A stretch of DNA of 64,000 nucleotides from Squalus acanthias (lineage: Eukaryota): the NCBI GenBank assembly GCA_030390025.1, contig CM059432.1:95234001-95298000 (forward strand). Direction: 5' to 3'. The notes beneath the pieces are model-generated. The model was not told where the DNA came from and made no database searches. It saw only the letters and a list, made by a program, of their open reading frames with translations. Shown one piece after another: positions 13,793-45,419 of the stretch (the stretch's first letter is position 1; each line of letters opens with the position of its first letter). The translations under genes were made by a program, and so were the position numbers.

Positions 13793-14047
<255 letters not shown>

Positions 14048-14481
14048 TAAGATTTTGCTGTTCATCAGTGGATGTGTAAACTGTATAATGATTGAGTCTC
14101 ATCAGTTGAAAACACAAATAAACTGATTTGTTTTGAAATTGGTAACTGTATACCTCACATACTAATAGCATCAAGAGAAAAAGAAAATCTTTTACACTGA
14201 CTTGTTTGGCTCCTGTTAAGACATGCATGCTTTAGATTCTATTATTTTGTATCTATTGCACCTAATTGTTGAAAAAACACAGGTAATATTCCATTATATG
14301 TAACAATGAAATGTAGTTATTTTATTAACATAAAACTATATAATCATTTAAACATTATACATTTCACAGTCTGCTAAAATGAAAAATTTTCAGTTTAAAA
14401 TGGTTGATTATGTTATTTCTTAGTTGGTCATTACATAATCAGTTGCAGTTTTTAAAAACATATTTTCATTCATACCAATAG

Positions 14482-14569
14482 GTACCACGGCCTCTGGCAA
14501 TGAAGAAAGAAGGAATCCAGACTAGAAAAAGAAAACCTAAGAATTTAAACAAGTCCAAGAGCACTTCAA
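14482..14569 (+). CDS. GATA6: GATA6 exon, basic region/NLS
   Basis: Acceptor TAG ending 14481; [29 protein letters not shown]; donor GTGAGT at 14570. Not in the ORF track (too short). Confidence 0.96.
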
Positions 14570-15721: not shown

Positions 15722-16322
15722 GGGCTAGAAATTCGGTGCATTTGCGCCTCTCGTTAGCGCCGGGCCACAAATGACTTTTCGTCCGGGCGCGGCGCCGCTA
15801 ACGACTCCCACTAAATTCAGCGGGAGTTTAGCGGCGGTGGTAACCGGTAGCACCCCACTCCACTGTGCAGGCGATGACGATGTCATCACTGTGTGCAGCA
15901 CCCCGTTTTTGTCCTGCCTGCAAAATTGGCCTGCGCCCGCATAATCTGCGCCGGGCGATGATAGCGACCGATTCAGGGGGTGGGAATGGAGTGGCAAGAA
16001 GCTCGCGGGCGCTAACTAAAGGAGAGGTGGCGGGCAGGGAAAAAAAATCGTCCGACTTACTTGTTGCAGCCCGTTGCATCTTTGAACGCGGGGTCCGTGC
16101 CGCGATCTGGCAGCCCGGCACTCCTCTTGTGTGCCGGGCTGCTGGCACAGCACCTCGCTCCCCAGTCGTCCAGCTAGGGCCCCGCAGAGTTGTGGGCTTG
16201 GGCCCTCGCCTTTAACGAGGGGAAGAGCCCTTCCATGCGGCAGCGCTACGTGGCCCAGTGCGTAGCGCTGCAGAACGCACCTGCCTCGATAGTCGGGGTT
16301 AGTGCTTTAACAAATTTTTCCC
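15722..16322. mobile_element. Harbinger-type non-autonomous element (TTAGCGCC group; right end unclear)
   Basis: TTA|gggctagaaattc terminus, GC-rich body with ttagcgcc/gcgctaa motifs like 28567-32713. Confidence 0.7.
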
Positions 16323-17091
16323 TGCTTGGAATCATTTAAGAGACAGTTGGATGTTGTGATTGGCAGATAATAGTTTTTTCCAGATGCTTTGGCTGATGGC
16401 CTCCCTCATCTGTATTTATCTTGTGATCTTTTGATCTTCTGATTCCTTACAGTAGCAAGGATAAGAAATCATTTTTTCAGGATACCACATGGTTTTATAA
16501 TGTGGTTAACTAGTTTATCACAGCTTTGGGACATGTTTGATCTGTAGGAATATGTATAGAAAGATATCAGATTAATTGTTCAACTCTTTAGCTAATTTCT
16601 ATATTCCATCAGTTCACATGGTCAGAACAGTTAATCAGCAGCTTTAGAAAGGGCAAGGTTCAGATCGTCTCTCTCCTGCACACTTGCAAGATTTTTCTTT
16701 GGGTGAATGAGAAAGGAAGAGACTCTATTTTAAGGACCTCTTCTTCTTCTTACCCAATTTCATATACAACTAAATTTGTGACTTGTAAGAAAGTTTGCTG
16801 CTACTCAGGTGATTTTTCACCTGAGGAGTACTGATGAAAATCTCTGTGATAATTTTTCCATCAAATACTAGGTAAGTGACGTAACTGTTTAATCTTTAGG
16901 TGTACTCACATACCCTGCTCATTAAAGAAAAAATGTTGAAGCTTTGACTGAACAGTGTAAGTCCTTCCCCTCACTAAATGATTTTGTATTTTTATTTGAA
17001 GCCAAGCACATTTGTTTGGTTATGTGCTATGGTACGACAAGCCACTCAGCTTTGATGTAATCTAATGCTTTCTCTAATCTTTGTTGACTAG

Positions 17092-19400: not shown

Positions 19401-19439
19401 GTCCCTGGGCCTCACAATTCTGCTGCCAGTAAATGAGGG

Positions 19440-19676
19440 CAAAAATGAGAAGTCGCACAACACCAGGTTATAGTCCAACAGTTTTATTTGAAATCACAAG
19501 CTTTCGGAGCTTACACCCCTTCCTCAGGTGAAGTGAGGTGAAGTGACTTCACCTGAGGAAGGGGTGTAAGCTCCGAAAGCTTGTGATTTCAAATAAAACT
19601 GTTGGACTATAACCTGGTGTTGTGCGACTTCTCATTTTTGTCCACCCCAGTCCAACACCGGCATCTCCGCATCATG
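19440..19676. mobile_element. Penelope-type mini-insertion: perfect 95-bp inverted repeat plus tail, 12-bp TSD
   Basis: 19440-19534 is the exact reverse complement of 19546-19640; agtaaatgaggg is duplicated at 19428-19439 and 19677-19688. Confidence 0.88.
19549..19586 (+). ncRNA. Minimal type I hammerhead ribozyme motif (mirror copy on - strand at 19494-19531)
   Basis: TCAC-CTGAGGA-A-GGGGT(gtaa)GCTCC-GAAA-GC-TT-GTGA: helix I TCAC/GTGA, CUGANGA and GAAA cores, palindromic AGCT helix III. Confidence 0.7.
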
Positions 19677-25761: not shown

Positions 25762-26212
25762 ACAACAACAAATTGCACTTATATAGTGCCTCTAACGTAG
25801 TAAAACGTCCCAAGGCACTTCGCAGGATCGTAATCAGACAAAAGTTGACACCGAGCCAAAGAAGGAGGTAAGTTTAGTCAAATAGGTAGGTTTTAAATGG
25901 CGTCTTAAAGGAGGAGAAGTGGAGAGGATGAGAGGTTTAGGGAGGGAATTCCAGAGTTTAGGGCCTAGATGGCTGTAGGCACGGCCGCCAATGGGGGGGC
26001 GAAGGAAGTCATTGATGGTCAAGGTGCTAGAGTTGGAGGAATGCAGAGTTTTTATAGGGTTATAAGGCTGCAAGAGGTTACAGAGATAGGGTGGGCCGAG
26101 GCCATGAGGGGATTTGAAAACAAGGATGAGAATTTTAAAATCAAGGTGTTGGTGCATTGGGAATCAATGTAGGTCAGCGAGTACAGGGGTGATGGGTAAA
26201 TGGGACTTGGTC
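25762..26212 (-). mobile_element. L2 LINE 3' fragment
   Basis: LDFKILILVFKS.HGLGPPYL.NLL.PY.P...L.SS..GGRAYS...PKLWNSLP is the L2 ORF2 C-terminus; (TTG)n tail. Confidence 0.88.
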
Positions 26213-27661
26213 ACCACTACTTTTGTCCTAGCTTTCCAATTGTTCATCAGCACTCAACATGAAATCATTCACATTGCAAAACTATCATAGCATAGTCTGT
26301 GGGTAATATATTTTTCCTTCCAAGCAAGTTCCTTCACTCTGAGAATGTTAACATGTCTTATGAGCAGATATCCTGAGATATTCCTTTTTATAGATAAGGA
26401 AATAAAACAAGCAGCAAACCTCATGGTCACATCTGATGCAGTTTTTTTTCAGTTGAAGCAAACTGGTCATAAATTGTGCAACTGTGAATGATTTGTCGAG
26501 GAGCAAAGGGCACGAGTGTAGACGTGTTTACCACACTGCAGTAATGATAAAAATGAACTTTGGCCTGTACACAGTTCTAACATGAGGCATACATAAACAG
26601 GCACATAGGAGTAAGAAATCAATTTTTCAGAGCTTTATTATAGTCTGTGCTCAGCAAACATCATAGATATCTGTTGTAAACTTAATTCTACTAAACGTTT
26701 GTCTTTGTTAATTGCTTTTTTTTAAAAAAGAAAGAAGGTGGAGTGAAAAATCAATTAAGTACTATTGTTGTAAACCAAAAGCTGATAGTATGCATTGAGT
26801 TCTGGATCTGCCCTTGACCATTTGTCACTATGCAAATCTGCATCAGTCATCATTGTTGCAAAATGACTGCTCGTTTAATGTCAGTGCTTGCATATCAATT
26901 TTGTCTCCACGCAAAATCTTAATGAAAGGTACTATTCTTAGGTGCATAAATAAAAATCAGAATCTTCAAAGTATCCTGTTTGCCTTTTGTTCACATTTCC
27001 ACTTGTATCTGATTGGACTCTGATGGCTTTGCTTCTATTTGCGGTCTGTTACACATTTCCAATGCTGGAGACATGCGACACTTCAGATTTTTAGCAATTT
27101 TCACAGTTTACAAAACAGTACAAAGATAGATAAAGAATGACAAAAGAGTAACATCAGTCCCCTACAGAGGCAACTCTTACACACTCCTGGAGATGTGCAG
27201 GTATATGAATGCTTAAATCTAGAATAGGGTTGACATCTCTGGTTGGGCATATTCCTCGAGGTTTCATCACATGCCTGGATTTTGCAGTCGAGGCACAAGG
27301 CGCCAGTTGTATTAAGCGGCCTAATATCAATTTTCAACAAACATCACCTGGAAGCAAGAAGTGAGGCATCAATATGAAAATAAATACTGGAAAGGAATCC
27401 ATATAATTAAGTTATTGGCCCGGAATTTGCGGTCAGCGGCGAAGCGAAGGCATTCGCGCACTGGCCCTGAAGTACACTTCACACAAAGATCTCGTGATCC
27501 CTGTGTCGTGAACTTTGGGTTTTCCGACATTTTATTCAAATCAATGGAGCTTAGTGGGGATCCCCTTGTGCGAACTGCTGTGATGTCAGCAAGCTGTCAA
27601 AGCAGCCAATCAAAATGCAGAATTCTTACAGACAGCAAACAAGGAAGTGAGTAAACTCTTA

Positions 27662-28554
27662 GGGGTAAAAATTCACTTGGTTGCGCCTCCCGTTAGCGCC
27701 TTAAGAGGGCGCTAATGGGGCACAAAGCCGCTAACGCCCGGGTGCAGCGATGTTTGCGCCGCTCGAGAACTTAACTTGAGATTGTGCGGCGGCGCTAAAA
27801 CTTACCGCTGCGACCACCTGCGCGCGCAGATTGTGACGTCATTCCATGGTGCAACGCCCTTGTGGCGCCCCGTAGCGGAAATTGAGTGGCGCCCCCTGCC
27901 TTACCGCCTGGCGCTTCCAACGACCAGAAGACTGGAACGCTATCAATCGCTGTGGGGCTGGGGGGGGCGCTATTTAAAGGGGGCCTCTTCCTGTCTTTTA
28001 TTGTTGGTGGCATTTTTGAACTACGCATTCTGAGAGAGAGAGGGAGAGACTTCTGGAGAGATTCAACGTTGTGTGAAGGAGTTTTGGGTACTGAGCAGCA
28101 CTTTGCAGGTTCATTTTGATTTGCCATTCCTTGTATCGATTTAGCAGAGACTGTGGGAGCTGCACTCTGAGCTCTTTGCATGGTACTCTCCATTGTTCTT
28201 TCCAGCACATTTGATGTGCAAGTCTCTCCAGGCCGAGATTCAAGGCTGCAATGAACAGGATGTGGATGGAAAGCAAGATTAACCATCCCCTTTAAGAACT
28301 GGCCCGTGCCATTGTGTGTGTGTACCATTGCTGACTGACATTACATGAGCTTCGCCAGCGCTCTGAGGTAGCGCCTCACTGCTCGGCCTTTGCGCCTTAA
28401 GAGAGGTGTGCAGCGCCTGCTTTAGCGCTCCACTCACCTCCCGGGGCGGTAAAAGTGAAGTTTCCTGTCAGTGCCGATAATTAGCGCCAGGCGCTAATAT
28501 TTGCGTCCGGACGATATTTGCGCCCCAAATGGGGCGCAACCTAATTTCTACCCC
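27662..28554 (+). mobile_element. Non-autonomous Harbinger, 893 bp
   Basis: TIR ggggtaaaaatt / aatttctacccc; TTA TSD (27659-61, 28555-57); ends nearly identical to 28567-32713. Confidence 0.93.
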
Positions 28555-28875
28555 TTAAAATTCTTAGGGGTAAAAATTCACTTGGTTGCGCCTCCCGTTA
28601 GCGCCTTAAGAGGGCGCTAATGGGGCGTTAAGCCGCTAACGCCCGGGCGCAGCGCTGTTTGCGCCGCTCGAGAACTTAACTTGAGATTGTGCGGCGGCGC
28701 TAAAACTTACCGCTGCGACCACCTGCGCGCGCAGATTGTGACGTCATTCCATGGTGCAACGCCCTTGGGGCGCCCCGGAGCGTAAATTGAGTGGCGCCCC
28801 CTGCCTTACCGCCTGGCGCTTCCAACGACTGGAAGACTGGAACGTTATCAATCGGTGTGGGGCTGGGGGGGGCGC

Positions 28876-28883
28876 TATTTAAA
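28876..28883 (+). promoter_or_regulatory. Putative TATA box of the transposase gene
   Basis: TATTTAAA in a GC-rich context ~200 bp upstream of the ATG; kept at the same position in both non-autonomous relatives. Confidence 0.5.
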
Positions 28884-29078
28884 GGGGGCCTCTTCCTGTC
28901 TTTTTCTGTGGTCGACATTTATGCACCACTCATTCTGAGAGAGAGAGAGAGATTCGGAGAGAGAGAGAGAGAGACTTCTACATTGACTCAACGCTTTGTG
29001 AGGTAGTTTTGCCTAGTTCATCCTAACTTTGCTGCTACTTTCGTTGCTGTACCTCATTACTTTTCTGGCAAAGAGAAT

Positions 29079-30239
29079 ATGGGGGCTGCAATGATTGGGG
29101 GCGTCGTCCTGCTCCAGCTCAATCGGAGGATAGTGAGACGCAGACAGAGAGTGGCAATGATGGCCAGACGGAGGAGGGCCATCAGGCGCATGTACAGGAG
29201 AGCTTACCCTCCCAGGGTATATCGTGAACAGCTCTCCTACATCCATATGTCCGAGGAGCTGTGTTTGCGAAGGCTGCGATTCAGCAAGGAGGTGGTCACT
29301 GAGCTCTGCCACCTGCTGCAGCCAGATCTGCAGCCTCAGCTGAGGTCCAGGACGTCTCTGTCGGTGGCAGTGAAGGTCACAGTGGCTTTGAACTTCTACG
29401 CCACTGGCTCATTCCAAGCTGCTGTTGGGGACCTCGCCAATATCTCCCAGTTTGCGGTGCATCGCTGCATCCGGCAGGTCACCAATGCCCTCTTCAGAAG
29501 GAGACGAGACTTCATCTCTTTCCCTATGACCCCAGACAAGCAGCGTGACCGTGCTCTGGGCTTTGCGAGGGTAGCGGGCTTCCCCATGGTGCAGGGCGCC
29601 ATTGACTGCACGCATGTGGCTTTGCGTGCTCCGCGAGAGAATGCAGAGGAATTCAGGAACAGAAAGGGGTTCCATTCCTTGAATGTGCAGTTGGTCTGTG
29701 ACCACAGACAGGTGATACTCGCTGTCAATGCCCACTATCCGGGCAGCTGCCACGATGCTTTCATCCTGCGCCAGACTACTGTGGCAGAAGTTTTCGAGGC
29801 ACCGCATCAGCCAGTTGGTTGGCTTCTGGGGGACAAGGGGTACGCATTGAGCACCTGGCTGATGACACCGCTCCGTACGCCAAACACCCCTGCTGAGCTG
29901 CGGTACAATGAAAGCCATCAAGCAACCAGGAACATTATTGAGCGCACAATCGGCGTGCTGAAACAACGGTTCCGCTGTCTGGACCATTCCGGAGGAGCCC
30001 TGCAGTACTCGCCTGAGCAAGTTTCGAACTTCGTAGTCGTGTGCTGCATGTTGCACAACATGGCAATCCTCAGGACTCAGCCAATGCCACCAGGCCTTGT
30101 AGCACCACCAGAGGAGGAGGAGGAAGAGGAGGAAGAGGACGAGGACGATGATCATCAGCAGCACCAAGGCAGGAGGGCGGCCCACAATGGTCAAACTGCA
30201 AGGGCCGTCCGTCAACGACTAATAGCAAGCCGCTTCTAG
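29079..30239 (+). CDS. Harbinger DDE transposase (HARBI1-like family), 386 aa, uninterrupted
   Basis: Motifs LRRLRFSK, ALNFYATGSFQ..GD...ISQ (HTH), [68 protein letters not shown], acidic tail. Confidence 0.96.
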   Translation: MGAAMIGGVVLLQLNRRIVRRRQRVAMMARRRRAIRRMYRRAYPPRVYREQLSYIHMSEELCLRRLRFSKEVVTELCHLLQPDLQPQLRSRTSLSVAVKVTVALNFYATGSFQAAVGDLANISQFAVHRCIRQVTNALFRRRRDFISFPMTPDKQRDRALGFARVAGFPMVQGAIDCTHVALRAPRENAEEFRNRKGFHSLNVQLVCDHRQVILAVNAHYPGSCHDAFILRQTTVAEVFEAPHQPVGWLLGDKGYALSTWLMTPLRTPNTPAELRYNESHQATRNIIERTIGVLKQRFRCLDHSGGALQYSPEQVSNFVVVCCMLHNMAILRTQPMPPGLVAPPEEEEEEEEEDEDDDHQQHQGRRAAHNGQTARAVRQRLIASRF

Positions 30240-30533
30240 GGCCCCTGCCATTGCTACAAACACTAATCAACCCAGCACGCAACCCCTAAGCCGGCCAAGG
30301 CACCAATAATTCCAACCACCAGCCATGTATATTTTGAATACAGAAACTTATTTATTTTACAAACTCTGTGTGTGTCAATTCCTCATGACAAACTCATAGA
30401 AATAAACACAAAAAAACAGTCAATAACATAACTGGTTCTCACAACCTGGAGATAATGTCCAAAACACTAAACAAAAGTTGGACCATGAACCTCGGCCTTT
30501 AATAAAAAAATGACCAGCATTTTGGCACACCTC

Positions 30534-31513
30534 CTACTTTTTGCCCTTCGAGGGTGATCTCCTTCCCTTGCGCACTTCCCCCCTTCTAACCCTACTGCTC
30601 CTCCGTAATGGGACCTCAGTGGCTGCAGCAAGGCTGGTGGAAGGCTGCTGCTCGTCAGACCCTGACACTGCAGATGCCCCTGAAGGACGGCCTCGACCAC
30701 TTCTGGGCCTGGAGGGCCCGGCTGCAGACTGCACCAACTCTGCATGGGCGGCAGCAGTCTGTCCTACAGGCGGTGGCAAGTGCAGTGGAGAAGTGACAGT
30801 GTTGGCAGCAGGAATGCTGTCATCGTGAGAGAGGCCAGCAACTCCCTGCTCGCCCGACACACTGGCACTCCCACGGGGCAGCACTTCAGCATCCGGAGCA
30901 ATTTGCCGGAGAACAGATTGCTGGCCTGCTGCGGCGCGGTGACAGCCCCGGGGACATGTGCACGAACCATCGAGGTTGGCAGCAGTCTGTGCTCGCGTGG
31001 CCTCCATCTGAGTCTGTATGAGAGCAGTCAGAGGTGGGATCACGGCAGCCAGTGACTGAATTGCAGCACTAAGCGTTAGTGTGGCATCCGCCTGTGCTAC
31101 AGCGAAGTGCTCCACACTCCTTGCCAGTGACTCAATGCAATCGGGCACCCTTCCCACTGCACCCATGAGCTCAGTGTGCATGCCCACCGCCTGGGTGTTC
31201 ATTTCTGCAATCAGCCGCTCCTCCTCTGCGTCCATTGCAGTAGGAGTGTCTGGCATACTCTCCCTCTGGGGAGAAGGCCCCCGTTCTTCCCTACCACCCC
31301 CATGGCGTTGCTGCAGCCCGCTGGGTCCTGGAGCTTCACCATCATCAGCCCCTTCCCCCCTGCTCCCCTCCGGGGAAGGCGTGTTCCCAGTGTGGGCATG
31401 GGCTTCCTCGGGAGAGGGTGGCACTGATGCTCCGGCTTCCTCTTCCTCCTCAGCTGCAGCATCACTCCCAGTGGCAGCTTCAGGGCCCGTCTCCTCAGCT
31501 GGTGAATCACCAT
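30534..31513 (-). CDS. Harbinger Myb/SANT-like protein, exon 3 (acidic, coiled-coil-like, basic tail)
   Basis: Acceptor CTTTCAG; phase 1 puts it in frame with the 30534..31424 ORF; spliced CDS 237+163+980=1380 nt = 459 aa + stop. Confidence 0.85.
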
Positions 31514-31672
31514 CTGAAAGCAGGGAGGTACAAGAGTGGCTTTAGCGTGAGGACAGGGTGGCAGTAAGGGAGGAATAAGTGCAGCGAGTTAGCAAGTTGG
31601 ATTGAAAGTGTCAAAGGCTGGTATTGTGAGGGACAAGTGGAAGGACAGAGGACAAAAAGGTGATGACCTTAC

Positions 31673-31835
31673 CATTGCTGTCCACAACGGGGTCGGCATC
31701 TCCAGTGGCGACGGGACCGATCACCCGGCTTGCCACAATCCTGTGGACGCGCTCCTCCAGATCGCTGAGGGGTTGCAGCTGAAGCCGCCCTCCACCCGTC
31801 CGTTGCTGCTGTTTCCGATTATGAGCCAGCTTAGC
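31673..31835 (-). CDS. Harbinger Myb/SANT-like protein, exon 2
   Basis: Acceptor TTCTTGCAG; AKLAHNRKQQQRTGGG..LSDLEERV..; donor G|GTAAGG; 163 bp. Confidence 0.88.
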
Positions 31836-31863
31836 CTGCAAGAAAAAGGACAGCATCTGAGTA

Positions 31864-31971
31864 AATATACAGCCATGGTCTTGCCTGATGTGCCTCCCAT
31901 AGGTGAATAGCCCTTACAATATACAGCCATGGTCTTGCCTGATGTGCCTCCCATAGGTGAATAGCCCTTAC
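31864..31971. repeat. Perfect 54-bp tandem duplication in Myb gene intron 1
   Basis: aatatacagccatggtcttgcctgatgtgcctcccataggtgaatagcccttac x2. Confidence 0.95.
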
Positions 31972-32119
31972 TGTATGCAAAGTGTGGAATGTGTGTGTGT
32001 GTTTGATGAAAGGGCCATAGGTGTTGGATGAGTGTTGTGCATTGGGGTTTTAAGACCCTCTGGCCATAGAGTGAGGTTGAGATGGAGGGATGGAGAGGTA
32101 TTGAGAAAAAGCCACTCAC

Positions 32120-32356
32120 CCTGACGACCCGAGTGAGGTCGTTGAACTTTTTGCGGCATTGAGTATGGGTCCTGGGCACCATGCTCCTGGAGGAGACGCT
32201 CTGAGCCACCTCCCTCCACACTCTTCTGAACTCGCGTGGCAAAGGCCTCCTGCCACTCTCCGGGAACAGCATGCATCGTCTGCGCTCCACTGCGTCAACC
32301 AGAGCATCCAAGGCCCGCTCGGTGAAGCGATGAGCGCGTTCTCTCACCCTCTCCAT
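32120..32356 (-). CDS. Harbinger Myb/SANT-like DNA-binding protein, exon 1
   Basis: MERVRERAHRFTERALDALV..LFP..VWREVAQSVSS..PRTHTQCRKKFNDLTRVVR (79 codons); donor GTGAGT at 32119. Confidence 0.92.
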
Positions 32357-32843
32357 GCTTGGCAGCAAAATGGATTACAGGTCTCTCCAGGCTGAGATTC
32401 AAGGCTGCAATGAGCAGGGTGTGGCTGGGGAGCAAGTGGCCCCCCCCGCTTTAAGAAGTGTCCGGCGCCATTGTGTCTGTGTTCCCTCGCTAACTGGCAG
32501 CAGCTGCGCTGTGCTCGTGCGCTGAGTTAGCGCCTCACTCCTTGGCCTTTGCGCCTTAAGAGAGGTGTGCAGCGCCTACTTTAGCGCTCCACTCACCTCC
32601 CGGGGCGGTAAAAGTGAAGTTTCCTGTCAGTGCCGATAATTAGCGCCAGGCGCTAATATTTGCGTCCGGACGATATTTGCGCCCCAAATGGGGCGCGACC
32701 TAATTTCTACCCCTTAACTTTTTAAAAATGTTAGAGAGAACAAAACAAAGATTGGGGCTCGCACATGGGGACAAGGCAAATCTGAAATAAAGATGAACAA
32801 ACTGTAAAAAAAAATAGATTTTTAAAAAGCTATAAAAAAATTA

Positions 32844-33736
32844 GGGGGAAAAATTCAGTTGGTTGCGCCTTCCGTTAGCGCCTTAAGAGGGCGCTAATGG
32901 GGCGCAAAGCAGCTAGCGCCCGGGCGCAGCGATGTTTGCGCCGCTCGCGAACTTAACTAGACATTTTGCGGCGGCGCTAAACTTTATCGCCGCGATCTCC
33001 TGCGCCGGCAGATCATGACGTCACTCGAGTGCGCAACGCCCCGGTATCGCCCCGGAGCGGATATTGAGTGGCGCCCCCTGCCTTACCGCCTGACGCTAGC
33101 AACGACAGGTTGAGGGGAGTGTTCTGCAGTCATGAAGGGAAAGGGGGAGCGCTATTTAAAGGTGACCGCTTCCTGCCTTTTATTGTTGGTGTCATTTTTG
33201 AACTACGCATTCTGAGAGAGAGAGGGAGAAACTTCTGGAGAGATTCAACGTTGTGTGAAGGAGTTTTGGGTACTGAGCAGCACTTTGCAGGTTCATTTTG
33301 ATTTGCTATTCCTTGTATCGATTTAGCAGAGACTGTGGGGGCTGCACTCTGAGCTCCTTGCCTGGCACTCTCCATTGTTCTTTCCAGCACATTTGATGTG
33401 CAGGTCTCTCCAGGCCGAGATTCAAGGCTGCAATGAGCAGGATGTGGATGGAAAGCAAGATTAACCATCCCCTTTAAGAACTGGCCCGTGCCATTGTGTG
33501 TGTGTTCCATTGCTGACTGACATTACATGAGCTTCGCCAGCGCTCTGAGGTAGCGCCTCGCTCCTCGGCCTTTGCGCCTTAAGACAGGTGTGAAGCGCCT
33601 GATTTAGCGCTGCAATCACCTCCAGGGGCGATAAAAGTCAAGTTTGCAGTCGGTGGCGATAATTAGCGGCAGGCGCTAATCTTTGCGCCCGGCCGATATT
33701 TGCGCCCCAAACGGGGCGCGACTGAATTTTTCCCCC
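32844..33736 (+). mobile_element. Non-autonomous Harbinger, 893 bp (sister subfamily)
   Basis: Perfect 16-bp TIR gggggaaaaattcagt / actgaatttttccccc; TTA TSD (32841-43, 33737-39). Confidence 0.93.
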
Positions 33737-34724
33737 TTAATGTTTTATTAAAATGGACAAATTTCACACTGCACAAAATTAAAATTAGTTTTTCAGGCCC
33801 GTAACCTTTTTTTAAGCAGACAATACACTGTTAAAACCCCAGTTACACCTAATCTCCTTGGGTCTAACTTTTAGCGGGGAATTTAACAACGTAATTACTG
33901 CAGAAGAGCCGAAGTTTTCGTCAGTTTCCCTGATTTGGATGATTACACAGATTGCCGGCTCTGTGGGGGGCACAGCGCAGCCTGTTTCGGAGCTGTCAAT
34001 GACAGACCACAACTTCAGGATTTACACATGTGCCAAATCTTGAAGCTGCGGTCAGTTTCAAAGGTGGAATGACGGCGAACGCTGCCAGTTCGCCGTTATC
34101 CTGTCCGCAAATTCCGGGCCATTATGACTTTTAAAAAGGGAGAGGAACAAAGTGCTCCATGTGGCACACAGGCCCCAAAACTCCTTCACAAGGTGAGGGG
34201 AGGGGCCTGCCATGGTAAAGTCCTGTGGGGGGAATGCCAGCCACAAATAGGCCTTTGGCGGCGGGAGGAATGTGGAAAAGCTCCTTCAGCGGAATTGGGT
34301 GCGCCAGTCCCGGAAAATCCTTCATCAGTGGTGGGGGGGGGGGGGGGCGGGGAGGTGGCGGTCCCAACAAAGGGTAAAAGGGGCCCCAGCAGAGGGTAAA
34401 GGGGGCAATAAGTCCTTCAGTGGGAGGTGAGGATTTCCAGGTTTGAATGAGCAGTCAGCTCAGGGGAAGTGAGCAGGCATAAGCGGCTGATATAAGGCGC
34501 AAATGGCCCAGTGGATGAGAAAGCAAGAGAGCAGAATAAATGGCAAGCGACCGAGGTGGCTGGCTGGCTGGCAGGTGCATGTGGGGAAGGGGAAGGCGTG
34601 AATGGTGAAGGTGTTGAGCAGCTGACGCCGATAGCGGGTGGAGGGAGCAACAGAGGTGTGTAGCGGGAGAGCAGCCGACACCAATTGCAGGTCTGGAGAG
34701 TGCCTGAGCCATTCAATGCTCATT

Positions 34725-34821
34725 TCCAGAATTCCCTATGATTTATCACCCACCCCAGATTGCTGGATTAATTTTTCATTCCCGGAGACTCCAGGACAAT
34801 CCAGGAGAGTTGGTAACCCTA
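34725..34821. mobile_element. hAT-type MITE end
   Basis: Ends in ggagagttggtaacccta, the reverse complement of a TAGGGTT(G/A)CCAAC-type hAT terminus. Confidence 0.45.
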
Positions 34822-37800
34822 CTGTAATGTCATACAATGACACACTTATACTGTGAAACTGACAGGCATGGGAGAAGTAGGGAGAAGTGGAGGGGCGGGG
34901 GTTAGTTTTTAGACTTACACCTCAACATTCACTATGGACTCAACTCCACCCCATTCCAGTTTGAACTTTGTAATGTAAAAGAAATACCTGCTGAAAACAT
35001 TTAGGGTTCAGGTATTTTAGTTTGTTTCAGTCCAATTTTAAATGCATTCCTTTTGCCATTTGTGTGAGCTTGAGTTGATATATTTGAACTATGTGAGGTA
35101 AATAGACTAATTTAAAAAAATACAGGGAAAAACATTTCTTGTCATTATCATCACAGCCCCCGTAATTTGTTTCAAATCAAGATGGTATGAATTCAGTGCG
35201 GTCTCTTTGGGCTTGTACTCATGCCTGTCTTGATTCAGTCAGTATAGGATTCAATTTTCTGACCGACATGGTCACTGCAATAAGTTTTCTTTCCTACAGG
35301 TCAGAGAAGGAAATTCATATCAGATATTGTCCCAGCCTGACGTGACTCTCCTATTTCGCAGCCTGGGCTGACTCTGAGGTCAAGAGGTGGGAGTTTTAAT
35401 TCTGAAAATAGTCTAAATAACTCTGTGCCATTTACCCTTGGCCAGCTTCTCCAATTCAGTATCACCTCACAATGAATATGAATTTTCAGCTCCACTATTA
35501 TCTGGGGTCTTTAGAGTAAAATTGGAAATGCTTATTTTATTTGGTAAGTTCAAGCTTCTTATGATTTTGTTGCAGACTCCGAATGTTCAAATGGTGCGAT
35601 GATATCAATCATAGTTGAAAGTAAAAATTTCCAGCTCTGGGAAACAGATTTATGCTGAGCTGCAAAGCAAAAGGTTTGCATGAGACGGGTATAAATATCT
35701 AAAATGTAAATTTGCAACTTTTGTACTTACTACAGATGGAATGGTGCCATCTTGTCTGGTAATTGGGGTGCAGGTAATTAAGACCTGTAATTAAGACCTC
35801 ACTCAGTTCAGGTTAGGACAGCTCAGAGCTGACTATATTCCCCTGGGGTTCATACTGAGGACTAGCCTGAGTCAGTTCATATCAATGCAGCAGGAGGTAT
35901 CACCTGTCTGATGTTTGATTGACTGGAATCTGCAAGAGGTTCGCACCAGCTTTTACACTTGCCAAATGCAAATCTCTCACATTGCAGCCACAGTAAAACA
36001 AAATCAGTCAATGCAGGTTAAGGGTTGTTGCTGCAGGACAGAATGTCACGGGTTTATATTTGCAGACTTGCAGTCATGATTTCAGTGCAGGTATGTCAAA
36101 TCTCTCGGATTTGAGGCAGTTCTCAGAATTTCAGTGAAAAACCTAATTTTTGTTGCAATCCATGTGCTTTTTTTGTTTTGGAAGTTGAATTCTTGTCTAA
36201 ATATAAAAAAGAATGATTACATTACTCTGAAAATAACTCAATTAATGATGTAAACACTAGTTTCAGCGCTCAACATCTCAATGTTTTGAGCAGTAACGAG
36301 TTTAATATGATTTTGACTAAAACTGGTAACTCTGGTATGTGGAGTATAAGCATAACTGGGAAACGCATTCAGTTCACATCTTTATGAGGACCCAAACCTA
36401 ATGTATAAATTTAATTTAACCTTTAACAACACCTAAAGTTCATTTTAATGAGTGTGAAACAGCTGGGTACATACTGCAATCTGTTTCTGGAGTAATATTT
36501 GTTCCATGTATCGTATGCATATGATGAGCCATTAATTCATTTAAAGTGTATTGTTCAGAAAATGTTTCTTTCTTCTAATCTATTAACTAGCCTGTTTAAC
36601 CCCTGTTTATATTTAAAGACAAGAAACCTGGGTATGCAGTCTATGTCTGATGCGTTTTCCATAATAGGATTATATACTTTTAACTGTCTCACCAACCAGT
36701 TTAGCAGTATTGAGTTTTTAAAATCCGATACTATTGATAAATGTGTAAGTAGCTGAGTTTATCTGTGTAGTAGTAAGCAGAGGGTGAAAACAAATCTGGT
36801 GCAGACATTTAACCATTTCCTAGCTGATCAGTGCCATTGTTAATTTATTGGAAGAGGGTAACTTTGTTAATGTGAGGTGGACACTCATAGCCCAAGTAAG
36901 CCTGTTCATGTTCCAAACATATGAAATTGGCACGATAGCAAATTGGCAGGCAGGAAAAGACCAGCTGGACCATCAAGCCTGCCCCACATCTCACGATGGC
37001 TGGAGCATCATGGCTAAACACTCCCCCGCTCCCCCCCGCAGCCACATAATCTCCTGGGAGAGGCGTGTACTGAAGTGAAATAAAAACAGAAAATGCTGGA
37101 GATACTCAGCAGGTCAGGCAGCATCTGTGAAGAGCGAAACAGAGTTTGTGGGCTCGATTTTGCCAGGCCCGAGGAGGCGGGATTGGAGGCATGTGAGTTG
37201 TTAAAATCGCCAAAAATGGCGGGCGGGCCCGATCCTGCCTCCATCCCACCTCCGAGCAATTTTCCCAAAAGCGTGTTTTCTGACCCCCTTTCCATCCCGC
37301 CTCCAAGAGGTGGGATAGGCCCTTAGGGCCCTTAACAACCACTTAATAGCCTCTATAATCCCATTTTGAGAGGCCTTTCCGATTTTTAGTCATTCCCCCC
37401 ATCCCTCACACCTCCTCTGGAACATGCCAGGTAATGCTGGCGGCCTCACAAGTGGATTGCTTACGAACAGCTGCAGCTCCACCATTACAAAGGGGTTTTC
37501 ACCAATGATCATTTGCAGGTGGCAGAACTTTGTTGTTTCAGGTCTGGGGAACTTTTAGCAGGCATACTCAGTGTTGTGGAAGTTTGGAGCCTGACACCCA
37601 TCTCCAGTGTGACCTCCTGGGAAACCCCTCTCCCCACCTTGACTAAGCGCTTCCTCAACTGAGGCATATACCAGAAGCATGGCGACCATTTAATTCCTTT
37701 CCTCCTGGACATCAGATTCGGATGAAGACCAGCCGCAGGCAGCAGCAGAACCATGAGCAACAGCAGCACCAACAGCAGAAGCATCAACAGGAGCGCCAAG

Positions 37801-38165
37801 CTGCTGCTCACCCACCTGAAGATGCATAGGCCAGAAGTCACCAGAGCGCGACCATATTGCTGCCTGGGATGCAAGGGACGCACTCATGTTGGTTACATTT
37901 GCTTAGCCTGTACAATCAAACACTTTTGCCTCGCATCTTCTTACCAGAGCATCGACAATGGACAAGAACCTGCGGATTCCTATCACTCTGACCACCATAC
38001 TGACAATTGCAAGTCGCTCTAAGCCCTCAATGTGGAAGTCCCATTTGCGAAATGACACAGGCCACAAGTTCAACAGTTTGCCATCAGAATATTTTTATCA
38101 CAACAAGCAACTGGTGGCATTTCAAAAATAAACACAACATAACACCCAAGTGTCTACCCTTGTGA

Positions 38166-40246
38166 CTACTTGTGCATTATCTTCCTCTTACGCGTGCTCC
38201 TACGTGGTGCTTCCCCTGTGGCTTCAGCAGTTGTGGAGGCCCCTTGCTCACTTTCTTGCTGCTCCTGTCTCGACACCTTTGGCGGCCGTCCTCTGGGGTT
38301 GCGAACCTGTGAGGGCTCGGCAACAGTCTGCTGCTCCTGTGGCTGTGCAGGGGATGAGACGCCCATCTCCGTTGGGTGAGGACTCTGGTGGGGCTCTGAC
38401 CGAGGGCTTTGCAATGGCATGGTTGTTTGAGTGCTTGGAGAGGAGCCCCCACTTCCGTGCTGTCTGCCACCAACATCCCTCTCATGGGTCAGCCCCACTT
38501 CAGAGCTAGCAAGTGGCTTGACAGTACCTTGCTACACTTCAGGGGGGCCATGAGGACCCGTTTCTGCACTGGAAGTCCTACTCCAGAGGACTTCCATGAA
38601 GGTCTGGTTTCTATGCTCAGTAGCTGACCATCGTTCCTTAAGAGATGCCAGTCTATTCTGAACAATGACCATGTTTTCTACACTCTGGCGACTTAGCTCC
38701 TCCATGGCCGTAGCCATCCTCTCTTCTACTGTAGCCATCCTTTCCACGGAGGTTGCCATCCTTTCCGTGGTGATGTGTTCATGCGCCAATGCCTCCACAA
38801 AGGCTCTGCTCATGTTCGCGATGGACTCCTCCATTCGCTCGACACTCGCAGTGACCCTGGAGACAAAACCTGCCAGAGACTCCTGCACCTGTTCCTGGAG
38901 TTCCAGCACCGCTCTCGTTCTGGATGGACCCGGAGGCACAGGGTTGACATGCAGCTGAGCCGAGCTGGCAGAGTCCTGCGCCCTCCGACGAGGACTCTCC
39001 ACTGCTGTCCCTGTCTCCACCATCTGCTGATGCTCACTTGTGAGCTGTGATACACCAGGTGCCAACACTACTTTATCTCGTGAAGGTCCCACCGAGGTGT
39101 CAGTGTCTGCGCTGGTGCTGGGTGCACTGAATTCTGCTGAGGCTGCGCCCTCAGAGGTTACAGCTTCCTCTGAGGAGTCTGGAAGCTCAGGCTCTTCCTC
39201 CTGGACAGTGGGGACGTGGGCTTTCGATGGTCCTGTGGGGGAGTAAAGGAAAGAGTTAGAGATGTTGGATAAGCACATGGAGCACACCAGAATGATAGGG
39301 AGTAGGATAGCTTGATCTTGGTTTCGGACAATGCTCGGCACAACATCGAGGGCCGAAGGGCCTGTACTGTGCTGTACTGTTCTATGTTCTATGTTCTATG
39401 TGAGGTCAAGGTTACATGAACATTGAATAGTGCAGATGATCATAAGTCAATCTGTTAGAGCATCAGATTCATTATCAGTGACTCATGCAATGTCAATGAG
39501 AGAGATGCCAAACTATTCTGTCACCAGCTTGCTGCGATGCGCCCATCTGTCCGTCCCCCACTTGGGAATCCTCCTCGATTCCGGCAATTTCCAGGGCCGC
39601 CTCCTCTCAGGCGGTGAGCTGGGCTACTGAGGGTGGCCCTCCTCCTGTCATGGCTCTTTCCCTCTTATTGTGGGCTCTCTTTTCCTGCAATGAGGGACAC
39701 AAGTGGAGTTTGAGTGAGAATGAAGGAATGAGTGTAGATAATCCATAGCATAGATGCTTAGAAAGATACAAAGGACCATCCCTGTGTGTTGAAAGTTGTT
39801 GTTGTCATGGCATCACAGTGATAGGGAGTGTGAGGGGTGCATGGTCGAATAGTTAAGTGAATGTGACCTTCGAGAGAGAGGGAATGGGTAAGGGTGCAAG
39901 CATGTAAGTGTCAAGTGGGATGTAGAGGAAGAGGTTGGCAAAGCAGAGTGCTGGTGAGGAGAGGCGATGGGGATCAGCTTGAGGGAGATGGGAAAGTCAT
40001 ACTCACTTTTCCTGTGCGGAGAAGCTCATGAAACCTCTTCCTGCATTGCAGCCAGGTTCTGCGGCTCAGCAAAATGGAGTTGACCTCCTGGGCCACTTGC
40101 AGCCACACAGCTTTTGTCTGCTGGGGTGGCTTTTTTCTCCCTGAGGAAGGGAACAGCACCTCCTTATTACATCTGGCTCCGTGCACCAGAGCTTGGAGGG
40201 AGGGCTCATCAAACCGAGGTGCACACTTTTGCTTGATCGTGGACAT
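38166..40246 (-). pseudogene. Harbinger Myb/SANT gene, 3 exons (40246-40007, 39684-39525, 39232-38166), disrupted
   Basis: Exon 1 APRFDEPSLQALV..WLQVAQEVNS..RRTWLQCRKRFHELLR; exon 2 EKRAHNKRERAMTGGG with an in-frame TGA at 39609-39607; frameshift near 38.5-38.6 kb. Confidence 0.85.
39290..39400 (+). mobile_element. CR1-type 3' tail inserted in Myb intron 2
   Basis: gagggccgaagggcctgtactgtgctgtactg(ttctatg)3. Confidence 0.75.
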
Positions 40247-40550
40247 TGTCGGGAAATCAACACCTTCATACAATTTGCAGAGCCTTTGCAGTCTCCAGAG
40301 GAAGCAAGGCTGCTTGCAGGTCTTAAATCCAGCAGCATTGATGACGTCATTGGAGGCGACTTTCTGTATGAAAAGACTCATTGGGCCAGGTGTTCCCACA
40401 CAATTAGGGGAAATCCCACTTTTTCAACACATCACTTAGGAGTCGGGGTCCTGACACGATTTCCACCTGACATGCCCCAGCCCGCCCACACTGACAAAAT
40501 CCAGCCCAACCTTTCAGGTCGATGATCTTTCGTCATCGACTTGAAACAAT

Positions 40551-41314
40551 GGCCCAGAAATTGGACTTCGATGGTTGCCGCGGGGGTAAGGATCCCCCGC
40601 GATATCGCACTCCGCGCCTGCCTTTATGGTTTTGGCCCACACGAACTTCAGTTCCTGGGCCTCTCCCTGGTGCTGGCGCGCAGTGTGTGCGTGTCCCAGA
40701 GGCGCAGTTAGTGCGATGTGACCTCTGGGATCATGTGGGCCAGTTAGAGCCAATGGCAGCACACCATCTTTCATTCATAGTTTTGACAGGAAGAGCTGTC
40801 AAAACTATGAATACAACAAGCCCCCAAAAGAACAGCTAAACCTCAATTAAATTTTAAAAAAGCCATCACATTAATAAAATAACTATAGTTAAATAAATTA
40901 ACCACTTTAAACAAAAATTTAAATTTTTGAAAAAATTTAAATTCTTTTTAAAAGTTATAAAAATAAACTTACCTTTCTTTAAAGTCTCTAAAAAAGATAA
41001 ACCTGTTGAAAAAAAATTAAAATAATACTTAATTAACTACTTACCTTGTTAAAAGGGGGTCTGACGCCTGCTTTCTTCATGTGTAAAATCTTCAACACTT
41101 ACCTGCGCGTTCAAACCTGAAAAAAAAACTAAGTGTGCTGCGTGCACGCAACCTGTAGTGCGCACGCGGTTCACTTAGGAACCGCCCCCTTCGCAATACC
41201 CGAAGTGCCGGTTTCCCGCGCATGCGCAGTGCATGCAGGAAACCGGCACTTCGGGACCTAATACGCGAGAGTACACAGTGCGTAATCTCCCGTATTAGGT
41301 CTAATTTTCAGGCT
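40551..41314. mobile_element. Harbinger-type MITE, 764 bp
   Basis: Imperfect TIR ggcccagaaattggac / gtctaattttcaggct; GC-rich ends, AT-rich centre, internal hairpins; removing it restores the Penelope arm. Confidence 0.78.
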
Positions 41315-42997: not shown

Positions 42998-43790
42998 AAG
43001 CTGCTCCTAGGAGGCCATACCCAGCACACAGGGTGTACAGGCCAAGAGTCACTTTCTTGGATCTATCAGAAACACATTGCATCAGGAGGCTGTGCTTCTC
43101 CAGGCAGGCTGTTGTAAACCTCTGCAGCCGACTGCAACAGGAACTGCTGCCTGCTGGACCAGGGTGTCACTGATGCCCTGTTCGCCAGGGCTGAACAGTA
43201 AATCACCTTCCCTATTGACCTCAACAGTCAACAGGAGTGAGCTCAGGGATTTGCAGCAATGGCTGGCTTCCCCCACGTGCAGGGCATCATTGACTGCACA
43301 CGTGTTGCCATCAACCAGATACCAGCCAGCAACATTCGTTAATTGATAAGGCTGCCACTCCATTAATATGCAGCTAGTGGCTGATCACACAAACAGGATC
43401 ATGCGAGTTTCTGCAAGGTACCCAGGTAACTGTCACGATGCATTTATCCTGTGCCAGTCTGCCAAGTAGTTGACACTCCCAGGGGGACCACCAGGATCAT
43501 TATTGAGCGCACCATTGGGATGTTGAAGCAGAGGTTCAGGTGTCTCGACAGATCTGGGGGCTCCCTACAATATACCCCACGAAGAGTCACTCGCGTTAAA
43601 GTAGTGTGCTGCATACTTCACAACTTCAGCATACAGAGGCCTGCATTTGGAGGTGGCGCAGCAGCAGCAGTCCTCATTGGATGAGGAAGACTAGGGGAAA
43701 GGCAAGGAAGCAGCAGAGGAAGGACATCCACCTCAACATCGTGCGGCAAGAGGTATGAGGGATCAGCTAGTTGCTGAGTGCTTCCACTAA
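42998..43790 (+). pseudogene. Decayed Harbinger transposase (third element)
   Basis: [88 protein letters not shown]; deletions, stops and frameshifts. Confidence 0.9.
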
Positions 43791-44059
43791 CATGCTCAAT
43801 CCCCTGCCCTGAGAACTTACACAGAGTACCTCTGATTAACAGTCCTCGATACCTTCTTCATCACTCTATTCTTTCTGCATTAAAGAACATTCAAACCATT
43901 CAGACAACTCCGATATCAATGACATACTGACAATGGAGACTCAGAAGCTGCTATGAAACCACTGTGCAGACCAAATTGCCAAATGTGATTAAATTAATGG
44001 TAAATATAATAATTGCCCTCCATTCATTTCTCACCCAAATGATCAAACCAGAGTGCTTT

Positions 44060-44230
44060 TCTTTAAAGAAGGAGGGGAGAGGGTCTTAGGGACTCTAGGG
44101 GAATCAAGGATATGGAGATCGGGCGGGAAAGTGGAGTTGATGTCGATGATCAGCCATAATCTTATTGAATGGCAGAGCAGGCTCGAGGGGCCATATGGCC
44201 TACTCCTGCTCTTAATTCTTATGTTCTTAT
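44060..44230 (+). mobile_element. CR1 3' end fragment
   Basis: ctaggggaatcaaggatatgg..gagcaggctcgaggggccatatggcctactcctgctc..ttcttatgttcttatg. Confidence 0.85.
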
Positions 44231-45170
44231 GGACCAGCTCCCATCGTGCCACTGCCAGTCCCATGGGGCTGGGGCTCATCACTTCCATCGATCTCTCAGG
44301 AGAGCAGACTGCAGGAGATGAGTAACACATTGAAAGCCCCTATCTATGCAGTCCACCAATCTGTTGAAGGTGGACATCTGTCTCTCCAAGCTGGAGCCCA
44401 GATCCTGCATGGCAGCTGTTTGAGCTTCCACCAAAACTGCAAAGCATGCAAACGTGGACTCCTGTTTTGAGGACCCGGCTGCAGTGTCCCTGGAGGTGAC
44501 CACACTCTCCAGGGTAAACTGCAGAGTGCGAGATGACACCACACAGGCCGGAAGCGGACTCTTCCACACTTTCAGCCATAGTTGTGAATCTCCTTGGCAG
44601 GTCTTTCAATACCTCATACAGCTGTTTGTGTGATGTAAGAAGTTTTATTTTCAAGGCAGGGCCCTTGAGGTCCTCATGTCTGTCCTCCTCAGCAGAGCTG
44701 AGAGAACATTGTCCTCTGACGAGCTGTCTCCTTTACTGTCCCTGCCACCAGTATCTGTTGCTACTCACTAGTTCTGGGTATTTCACCATGTGCACACCCC
44801 TCTGGTTCACTATCTAACCCGAGTGGAGTGCCACTGACTGAGATGGTGCTTGGGAGGCTGGAGTGCATGATTGGGCCTCTGCAGGAGGACTGACCTCCTC
44901 CAAGGTGTCTTCTTGTGCAGGAGCCTCTTGCTGCCGAGAAAGACCTAGAAGAATGAGCAAAGGCACAAGAGTTAGGATGGCAGATAGATAGGCTGTGGGT
45001 AATGCTGCTGACACTGATCCCATCAGCCACCTCTGTCCAGCCTGCGAGCTGGTGGCCTTGAGGATGCTCCTGCGGCTGCTGGTGAAGAGTATTTTTCTCC
45101 GTGCCCTGACTTCGTCCACTAAGACCTTCAGGGAGGCATCAGGAAAGCAGGGTCCAGACCTTCTATTCAT
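44230..45170 (-). pseudogene. Decayed Harbinger Myb/SANT gene (third element)
   Basis: MNRRSGPCFPDASLKVLVDEVRARRKILF start; coiled-coil-like pieces MAESVEES; convergent to the transposase; probable element terminus aaaatccaccc at ~45740. Confidence 0.7.
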
Positions 45171-45419
45171 CTCAGTAACCAGCATATCATCCAGTGTTCT
45201 TGTAAAAAATCCAAGCAGGTGATGCAACCTCATTTTGAAGATGCATCCCCGTTTTAAATAAGCCTCGAGATTCGCGCCAGAAATGACATGCAGCAGGTGG
45301 ACGGAATGCCCGATTCCCCACACAATCGGGAGAGCAACCAGTCAGTCAAAATAAAAATTAGAGCTAGGCCGTTCAGGGGGTGATGTCATGAAGCACTTTT
45401 CCCCCACAAAGGGGACTGG

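Follow-up and report, generated by a model that had tools for sequence, protein, structure and literature searches.

Why should three Harbinger elements lie within about 140 bp of a single older MITE, each with a TTA target-site duplication (TSD) of its own? The initial annotation had proposed this three-in-one arrangement, and its coordinates, TSDs and spacing all proved exact in the 64-kb window, that is, the whole stretch of DNA analysed here. Read along the plus strand, on which host and insertions all lie, the host MITE begins after its own ATT target duplication (27414-27416 on the left, 34121-34123 on the right) with a TIR-bearing left arm (27417-27661) that ends in the TTA of site 1 (27659-27661). 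Next comes E1 (27662-28554; 893 bp), a mosaic non-autonomous Harbinger, and a linker at 28555-28566 that consists of E1's duplicated TTA, six host bases common to sites 1 and 2, and the TTA of site 2. E2 (28567-32713; 4,147 bp), a two-gene Harbinger that is probably autonomous, is succeeded by its duplicated TTA and the AT-rich centre of the host (32714-32843), a segment closed by the TTA of site 3 (32841-32843). E3 (32844-33736; 893 bp), a non-autonomous Harbinger whose ends are of a separate type, is in turn followed by its duplicated TTA and the TIR-bearing right arm of the host (33737-34120). All three insertions are thus flanked by TTA on both sides; their TIRs begin GGGG, with 3, 3 and 0 mismatches over 14 bp in E1, E2 and E3, respectively. 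The target centres are spaced by 9 bp (sites 1 and 2) and 127 bp (sites 2 and 3), and the 9-bp stretches that immediately precede E1 and E2 are identical but for one base. The shared orientation of the three elements was rejected as evidence, having a chance of 1 in 4.

Excision of E1, E2 and E3 with one TTA each restores the host (27417-34120) to a 762-bp element with a perfect 14-bp TIR match and ATT on both sides. The right half of such an element, anticipated at ~760 bp, had been matched to 13010-13427, and this too was borne out: the restored host is 74.7% identical over 427 columns (E 2e-76) to a partial, uninterrupted relative comprising the centre and right arm at 13005-13427 (plus strand). 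This relative spans only host positions ~320-762, so it offers an empty paralogous homologue for site 3, at 75% identity, and none for sites 1 and 2. For host positions 1-360, no significant match was found in 12000-13004 (score 23, shuffle maximum 30), and no homologue of the left arm was found elsewhere in the 64-kb window. As no empty host copy spanning sites 1 and 2 was seen, the 9-bp near-repeat may not predate the insertions. The centre of a further element, at 40551-41314, bears a weak likeness to the host (score 57, shuffle maximum 44); this element has 5 mismatches in a TIR of 16 and no matching TSD, and is treated here as a MITE-like control rather than as a member of the host family. 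The host itself is non-coding, and no partner element with its ends was found in the 64-kb window.

By their sequences, E1, E2 and E3 are three different variants of one family, none of them a copy of another. E1 resembles E2 in positions 1-338 and 711-893 (96.4% and 97.8%) and E3 in positions 339-710 (97.3%), and the two ends of E3 are 82% and 87% identical to the corresponding E1/E2-type ends. Between E1 and E2, the 521 bp of shared ends hold 16 differences, only 4 of which are CpG-type and 7 of which are common to E1 and E3, while E1 and E3 differ at 95 of 893 bp; the left/right TIR mismatches of E1 and E2 are identical. E2 encodes a transposase on the plus strand (29079-30239; 386 aa, no internal stop) with a DDE_Tnp_4 domain (PF13359, E 2.6e-39), whose closest relatives among the matches listed are shark and ray models automatically annotated as "putative nuclease HARBI1" (best 66%). 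On the minus strand, a Myb/SANT-like gene (30534-32356; 459 aa open) is predicted to be spliced from three exons (32356-32120, 31835-31673 and 31513-30534), with PF13873 recognized in exon 1 (E 1.6e-9); one of its two in-frame GT-AG solutions is open. E1 and E3 lack both genes and are hence non-autonomous. Each of the three elements carries 5-7 GCGCTAA repeats, mostly near its ends, and the host has none.

The explanation that we favour, and regard as probable, is that an extended target motif directed three separate insertions into a motif-rich MITE centre. In a genome like that of a cartilaginous fish, a PIF/Harbinger family of very high copy number would pick its targets by a roughly palindromic 15-bp sequence, approximately AAA-N-N-Y-[TWA]-R-N-N-TTT, and an older Harbinger-type MITE would by happenstance carry three such targets within a 136-bp stretch of its AT-rich centre. 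Three separate events would then have brought in the two-gene element and two non-autonomous ones, one with E2-type ends and one with the other end type. The six bases between sites 1 and 2 would do double duty, as the right flank of one target and the left flank of its neighbour; because the two sites, 9 bp apart, share this one hexamer, an insertion at either keeps the other 15-mer intact, whichever came first. An extended target preference of 9-15 bp is reported for the superfamily in the available text of two studies (PMC2836001; PMC3016246), and here, likewise, the element's own proteins would read the motif. E2-like proteins may have moved E1 and E3 in trans, as the shared subterminal GCGCTAA repeats suggest, and the filling of all three sites would reflect motif quality, copy number, some luck and the selection of a striking case.

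The evidence for the motif lies in counts of TTA and TAA loci, scored by the outer triplets of the 15-bp target published for Harbinger3_DR (AAA-N3-TWA-N3-TTT), a score adopted once the sites were already known. The restored sites match 5, 6 and 6 of the 6 outer positions (n=3, score post hoc), and of the 30 TTA/TAA loci in the host no others score at least 5 (1/C(30,3) = 2.5e-4); window-wide, 44 of 2,086 loci score at least 5/6. Adding Y at -1 and R at +1 leaves 15 of 2,086 loci that reach 7 of 8, with all three sites among them. When all 12 flank positions of Harbinger3_DR are counted, the three sites agree at only 7, 7 and 9, and 85 of the 2,086 loci do as well. The earlier proposal that the AT-rich MITE centre acts as a landing pad stands insofar as the centre holds three good target motifs, and the 196 bp that surround the restored sites have an AT content of 72%, which places them in the top 2.2% of 200-bp windows. 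AT-richness alone was, however, rejected as the cause, because only 35 of 1,124 AT-matched TTA/TAA centres (>=65% AT), or 3.1%, score at least 5/6; the probability that three insertions at >=65% AT sites would all do so is ~3e-5 (35/1,124 cubed, score post hoc). The half-site AAAGTC stands beside TTA or TAT at two more Harbinger-like ends of the window (15722 and 63178-63179), and a counter-example is seen in organism C, where one flank ends TGACTC-TAT without the outer A triplet. When the window was screened for additional TIR pairs bounded by matching 3-bp duplications, 18 rows resulted, of which only the host and the E1-E3 combinations were convincing; this left no basis for an independent target matrix.

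The motif alone does not predict that all three sites should be filled, since the 41 loci scoring at least 5/6 outside the host are all empty, two triples within 150 bp included: one in the partial host copy (13015, 13025 and 13149) and the other at 40919-40998, in the MITE-like element. Were three of the 44 loci chosen at random, the probability that all would fall in one triple is 2.3e-4. The contrast between 3/3 filled here and 0/41 elsewhere is what speaks for an unlikely but tenable alternative, in which the motif fixes the base and a first insertion promotes the next one nearby, through open chromatin or through Myb-like tethering at the subterminal repeats. Such feedback also draws on the restriction of the GCGCTAA repeats to E1, E2 and E3, on an occupancy of ~15% per site that one full triple among 200 host copies would need at even odds, on a report, in the text available, that some rice MITE families prefer self-insertion (PMC5172404), and on the existence of a chromatin-feedback model (PMC12709442, likewise in its available part). 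However, this is a single locus, chosen as striking among at least 185 windows of the genome, and the excess falls ~30-fold with the two added motif positions, from 7.6e-5 to the 2.2e-3 with which a random choice among the 15 best loci would fall entirely in the host's three; the binding of the Myb-like protein to the repeats is, moreover, a supposition. A stronger version, which we hold to be quite unlikely, is that a resident-bound Myb-like protein recruits the complexes of sister subfamilies, filling every usable 15-bp site within ~150 bp, such that motif-rich MITEs become nucleation points and the stack could move as a 6-kb composite; the left end of E1 and the right end of E3 differ by 1 mismatch in 14 bp, with TTA on both sides. 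That the family recognizes the host MITE family itself, by structure or by a bound protein, beyond the 15-bp motif, might be read from the presence in the host of all three young-family copies found in the 64-kb window, and rice Ditto MITEs are described as targets of many other families in the accessible text of PMC5172404. We nonetheless judge such transposon-into-transposon targeting very unlikely: the partial host copy has three motif loci and no insertion, and, together with the second MITE-like element, it provides two empty controls (only two) that argue against strong homing. Furthermore, the young family exceeds the host arm 12-34-fold by summed contig depth (E3, 29-34x; E2 interior, 12.5-14x; two runs, a measure that is not copy number), so most young copies cannot sit in the host family, and a copy in organism C lies in an unrelated flank. 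The host arm itself has 2,250-5,550x the depth of unique flank in two runs, which again is not copy number.

Two further readings question the independence or the reality of the insertions. In the former, local hopping, or a tandem duplication of the unit made up of 6-bp flank, TTA, element and TTA followed by replacement of the interior, would have made E1 and E2; the near-identical 9-mers to their left would be a product of the duplication, and the two elements do share an end type and the same TIR mismatches. Yet no two of the elements are copies of each other, and the suggestion of local hopping in the initial annotation is not supported: the divergence of the shared ends of E1 and E2 is mostly not of CpG type and is partly common to E1 and E3, and E3 differs from both. 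Public reads add to this. Four runs were aligned to 28530-34320, a region that excludes the host left arm and nearly all of E1, and from totals of 294 joints, 4,571 loose ends, 1,097 variant rows and 159,458 pieces the read tables list 15, 24, 40 and 32, respectively. At 8 listed places, the left-end alleles of E1 make up 22-100% of the depth, which marks them as a common haplotype genome-wide; its mosaic border recurs in run X1 as the joints 28904->33184 (depth 1,015) and 28904->33196 (depth 144), and a contig of organism C, one of the organisms B-L, from whose runs only X6 and X8 were aligned, carries all eight E1 alleles with a different flank. The duplication reading is accordingly highly improbable, and the earlier claim of independent insertions rather than tandem duplication is upheld by the separate TSDs, by the three distinct variants and by the occurrence of the E1 end alleles and mosaic joint in other copies. 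As for a mis-assembly of repeats, none of the contigs listed spans the stretch and the E1-E2 junction is not among the rows listed; among the 15 of 294 joints listed, none skips E2 or E3 and none is an empty-site joint, which is uninformative on absence. Set against this are the three clean TSD pairs, a restored host whose TIR is perfect and which has a TSD of its own, the intact frames of E2, copies that are 3-18% apart, a host right junction (34069-34320) identical in one contig each of samples S1 and S2, and a share of 0.82-0.84 of the sampled words of 26000-35900 in two samples. In the runs of organisms B-L, this share is 0.26-0.40. The stack is thus almost certainly not an artefact of assembly. 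In metagenome contigs, the family end sequences had 0 matches.

Returning to the extended motif with three separate insertions, the locus most likely exemplifies a familiar form of nesting and not a novel targeting system: a tidy case of the rule that an extended target preference turns older repeats into hot spots. MITE multimers have been described before, as have the hotspots that motifs create within older elements. The small geometric addition made here is that targets 9 bp apart can share a hexamer and be usable in either order. The family merits cataloguing as an apparently intact, very abundant cartilaginous-fish Harbinger with end-swapped non-autonomous partners; one survey, in its available text, lists no Harbingers in the elephant shark and calls for checks of other species (PMC9179366). 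The literature on vertebrate Harbinger stacks in MITEs, on shark and elasmobranch Harbingers and on end-swapped non-autonomous Harbingers yielded no title on this family, within a coverage that excludes Repbase and most subscription papers. Should occupancy beside resident copies exceed what the motif predicts, self-guided clustering by a two-protein transposon would be indicated, and this, if true, would matter both to transposon biology and to efforts at directing insertion.

Comparison with known systems places the elements and their arrangement in context. In the definition given in the available text of Han et al. 2015 (PMC4482050), PIF/Harbinger elements have a 5'-TWA-3' TSD, DDE transposase and Myb/SANT ORFs and a short TIR starting with A or G; correspondingly, TTA flanks E1, E2 and E3, E2 carries both ORFs and the TIRs begin GGGG. 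The 5'-CWG-3' TSD of the NuwaI or Harbinger3_DR type is absent, the TSD being TTA at all three sites, and so is the NuwaII target 5'-C|TNA|G-3', as A follows TTA at each. The ATT duplication of the host fits the 5'-ANT-3' of the Pangu group of the PHIS superfamily, in one copy only, and its TIR likewise starts with GG, going by the available text of the same paper (PMC4482050); with no transposase tied to the host, we do not claim membership. Zebrafish Harbinger3_DR and Harbinger3N_DR, as far as the accessible parts of PMC3016246 and PMC2836001 describe them, similarly pair a transposase with a Myb-like gene, have non-autonomous partners and produce a 3-bp TSD within a 15-bp palindromic target with outer AAA/TTT; however, their TSD is CWG and the inner flanks match only in part (7-9 of 12); the likeness drawn here is one of features. 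In maize and rice, MITE multimers arise by independent insertions and some families are frequent targets (Jiang and Wessler 2001, as relayed in the available text of PMC5172404). There too, PIF/Harbinger-type (Tourist) MITEs lie adjacent to or nested in MITEs, and here too the nested elements carry separate TSDs and are not copies of one another; the plant cases, though, involve thousands of elements, whereas ours is one vertebrate locus that includes a full two-gene element. The hotspots in older human TEs described by Levy et al. 2010 (PMC2836564, available text) also have young elements at fixed positions, often on an integration motif, and AT-rich flanks beyond the TSD matter there for hAT; they concern other superfamilies and a hotspot across many copies, in contrast to three sites of one copy. 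Finally, the double insertions of McGurk and Barbash 2018 (PMC5932611, available text) are head-to-tail neighbours that result from separate insertions, favoured nearest the preferred motif. Their junction holds a single TSD. At the E1-E2 junction (28555-28566), by contrast, two TSDs enclose six host bases, so two overlapping sites were used.

The nested structure at 27417-34120 is real and arose by three independent insertions, most likely guided by an extended target motif present three times in the MITE centre. Direct inspection of the sequence bore out the coordinates assigned to the nested Harbinger elements by the initial annotation, with E1 (27662-28554, 893 bp), E2 (28567-32713, 4,147 bp), and E3 (32844-33736, 893 bp) each having TTA on both sides. 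As had also been claimed, their excision restores a TIR element of about 760 bp, precisely 762 bp, with a perfect 14-bp TIR and ATT on each side, and the target centres lie 9 and 127 bp apart. This host MITE is, by nesting, older than its three inserts. Its TIR is of the general GG..GAATTT type, like further Harbinger-like ends in the window, and no transposase attributable to it was found. Host copies in public contigs diverge from it by about 10-17% (longest pieces among those listed). The uninterrupted relative earlier placed at about 13010-13427 is confirmed as a match of 74.7% identity to 13005-13427; it begins only at about host position 320, and of the three sites only site 3 therefore has an empty homologue in the window.

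The restored target sites of E1, E2, and E3 (sites 1, 2, and 3) read AAACTC-TTA-AAATTC, AAATTC-TTA-ACTTTT, and AAAAAA-TTA-ATGTTT. According to the available sections of two sources, zebrafish Harbinger3_DR integrates into the palindrome AAACACCWGGTCTTT (PMC3016246), and the superfamily prefers targets of 9 bp in plants and 15 bp in vertebrates (PMC2836001). On a six-position score comprising the outer triplets of the Harbinger3_DR palindrome, which was picked after the sites had been seen, they reach 5, 6, and 6 of 6. Within the host, 3 of 30 TTA/TAA loci score at least 5, and these are exactly the filled sites; in the emptied window 44 of 2,086 do so. With Y at -1 and R at +1 included, the score has eight positions, on which 15 of 2,086 loci, all three sites among them, reach at least 7. 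Where the DNA is at least 65% AT, just 35 of 1,124 centres score at least 5, and therefore the spots are set by sequence rather than AT-richness. The AT-rich centre thus survives as a landing pad in that it holds three motif sites, but not by virtue of AT-richness alone. Read directly, the hexamer between sites 1 and 2 does double duty, closing one target on its right and opening the other on its left; because the spacing is 9 bp, insertion at either keeps the other 15-mer whole. The extended motif, offered three times by the MITE centre, would steer three separate insertions. The half-site AAAGTC precedes the duplication at two further Harbinger-like ends, the single intact ends of truncated elements with GCGCTAA repeats at 15722-16330 and 62440-63179.

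The E2 transposase frame is open, 386 aa long, and of the DDE type (PF13359, E = 2.6e-39); its relatives (best 120 of 260) are mostly from sharks and rays, bear the automatic label "putative nuclease HARBI1", and reach 66% identity at most, which makes a cartilaginous fish the most likely source of the DNA. Convergent to it on the opposite strand is a Myb/SANT-like gene (exon 1, PF13873, E = 1.6e-9), predicted to have three exons that join into an open frame of 459 aa (one of two in-frame GT-AG solutions is open). A perfect 54-bp tandem duplication (31864-31971) lies within its first predicted intron. E2 has features of the PIF/Harbinger group, namely TTA duplications, short G-initial TIRs, and two genes. 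E1 and E3 align colinearly and gap-free, and 95 of 893 positions differ, unevenly distributed. E1 positions 1-338 are 96.4% identical to the E2 end and 82.0% to E3, positions 711-893 are 97.8% and 86.9% identical, respectively, and over positions 339-710 the identity to E3 is 97.3%. Because its ends resemble E2 whereas its core resembles E3, E1 is a mosaic, a point absent from the initial annotation. The same end-swapped type recurs among other copies. In the left end of E3, the commonest letter in public contigs matches neither E1 nor E3 at several places, so there is at least one further, third end type.

The mosaic structure invites the reading that E1 arose by local duplication of E2 and then had its interior swapped out, and the 9-mers to the left of E1 and E2 differ by a single base. 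The comparison with public contigs, made with four runs on 28530-34320 (a stretch that takes in only the tail of E1 and none of the host left arm), argues against it. At the left end of E2, the alternative letter is the E1 letter at 8 of the 8 variant places listed, and there it contributes 22-100% of the summed depth for the two runs from organism A, one of the coded public data sets. The letter of E2 itself is likewise common at six of the eight, so both end types are widespread haplotypes. In run X1, the joints 28904->33184 (depth 1,015) and 28904->33196 (depth 144), compared with 10-18 for unique flank, connect an E2-type left end to an E3-type core at the border seen in E1, and a contig from organism C, another coded data set, carries all eight E1 letters and ends at 28904 with a different flank. 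Of the 16 differences between E1 and E2, seven are common to E1 and E3 and just four are of the CpG type. The widespread E1 haplotype, the recurring mosaic border, and these 16 differences argue against the local hopping entertained initially, whereas independent insertion holds, with the E1 alleles and mosaic joint present in other copies. Three distinct source elements therefore arrived at the host MITE centre. Neither the E1-E2 junction nor an empty allele was seen among the 15 of 294 joints and 24 of 4,571 loose ends listed.

Outside the host, 41 loci scoring at least 5 of 6 are empty. Three times in the window, three such loci lie within 150 bp of one another, always in MITE-like DNA, and only one of these triples, that of the host, is filled; the empty ones lie in the partial host copy (13015-13149) and in a MITE-like element at 40551-41314. 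The latter spans about 764 bp, with degenerate TIRs and a palindromic, very AT-rich centre weakly resembling that of the host. Under uniform choice, three copies would share one triple among 44 loci with p = 2.3e-4, and would occupy the host's three among the 15 best loci with p = 2.2e-3. Chance filling of all three is plausible, because the locus was singled out as striking among at least 185 windows of the same genome and the score used is probably blunter than the true matrix; however, one full triple at even odds needs about 15% occupancy per site given 200 host copies, or 4% given 10,000. Feedback, in which an earlier insertion favours later ones, is unlikely but stays a candidate because the motif does not account for all observations: 41 equal loci and two triples are left empty, the score was chosen post hoc, the full Harbinger3_DR flank fits the sites at only 7, 7, and 9 of 12 (level 7 is reached by 85 of 2,086 loci), and the sole outside flank observed, in organism C, lacks the A triplet. 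Self-guided clustering via the Myb-like protein is quite improbable. That the family homes to the host MITE family is very doubtful, given that no insertion lies in the partial host copy and that the host is far outnumbered by the young family.

The E2/E3 family reaches very high abundance. Its summed contig depth, which is not a copy number, is 29-34x that of the host right arm for E3 and 12.5-14x for the E2 interior, and the host right arm itself exceeds the unique flank by a factor of thousands. Of 14 positions compared between the E1 left end and the E3 right end, 1 differs, with TTA outside both. Since the outer ends thus nearly match and are TTA-flanked, the 6,075-bp stack of all three elements (27662-33736) has the outline of a composite element. 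In runs of 11 further organism codes (X6-X24), 0.26-0.40 of sampled words were present. The E2 interior in organism C differs at 11 of 2,015 letters (five pieces among those listed, the sum excluding two end pieces and a further piece that differs at 14 of 204 letters), while the host arm is almost uncovered and the unique flank has no cover, a hint of horizontal transfer or a lineage-specific burst.

Elsewhere, the window, which is vertebrate DNA, contains three exons of a GATA-type zinc-finger gene (8374-14560; at about 8.4-8.6, 13.9, and 14.5 kb; PF00320), presumably of the GATA4/5/6 subfamily, and the partial host copy sits between its two zinc-finger exons. Also present are fragments of LINEs and several additional Harbinger-like elements, including decayed two-gene or partial ones at 37150-40507 (Myb_DNA-bind_5 at 39977-40423), 43200-45340, and 52150-54860 (DDE_Tnp_4 at 53864-54757). 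A near-perfect hairpin at 19437-19643 (98-nt arms at 99%, 11-nt loop) adjoins a LINE 3' fragment. Relative to its copy at 10686-11040, the repeat at 55538-56444 has about 550 extra bases, and because these carry a Harbinger-like end (at 56266), it is probably another nesting. GGCC-starting ends adjoin an A-N-T triplet at 2012 (AAT), 13427 (ACT), 27417 (ATT), 40551 (AAT), and 62092 (AGT), and other GGCC-type matches in the window do not; the former could represent a group of their own whose duplications are ANT. The ATT duplication of the host conforms to 5'-ANT-3', the Pangu group rule given in the available part of PMC4482050.

Several features of the locus can be set beside known systems, as far as the available portions of the respective sources describe them. 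MITE multimers form by independent insertions, some rice families insert into themselves, and Ditto is frequently targeted (PMC5172404); human transposable elements have hotspots inside older elements, often at integration motifs (PMC2836564). A model of clustering by chromatin feedback has been published (PMC12709442). The portion of PMC9179366 at hand reports that the elephant shark yielded no Harbingers, and it proposes that teleost sublineages have occasionally recombined; for Medicago, nested as well as mosaic PIF/Harbinger elements are reported (PMC2213677). P-elements yield head-to-tail neighbours via double insertion, with the best motifs favoured (PMC5932611); the E1-E2 junction differs from this arrangement in that it contains two TSDs.
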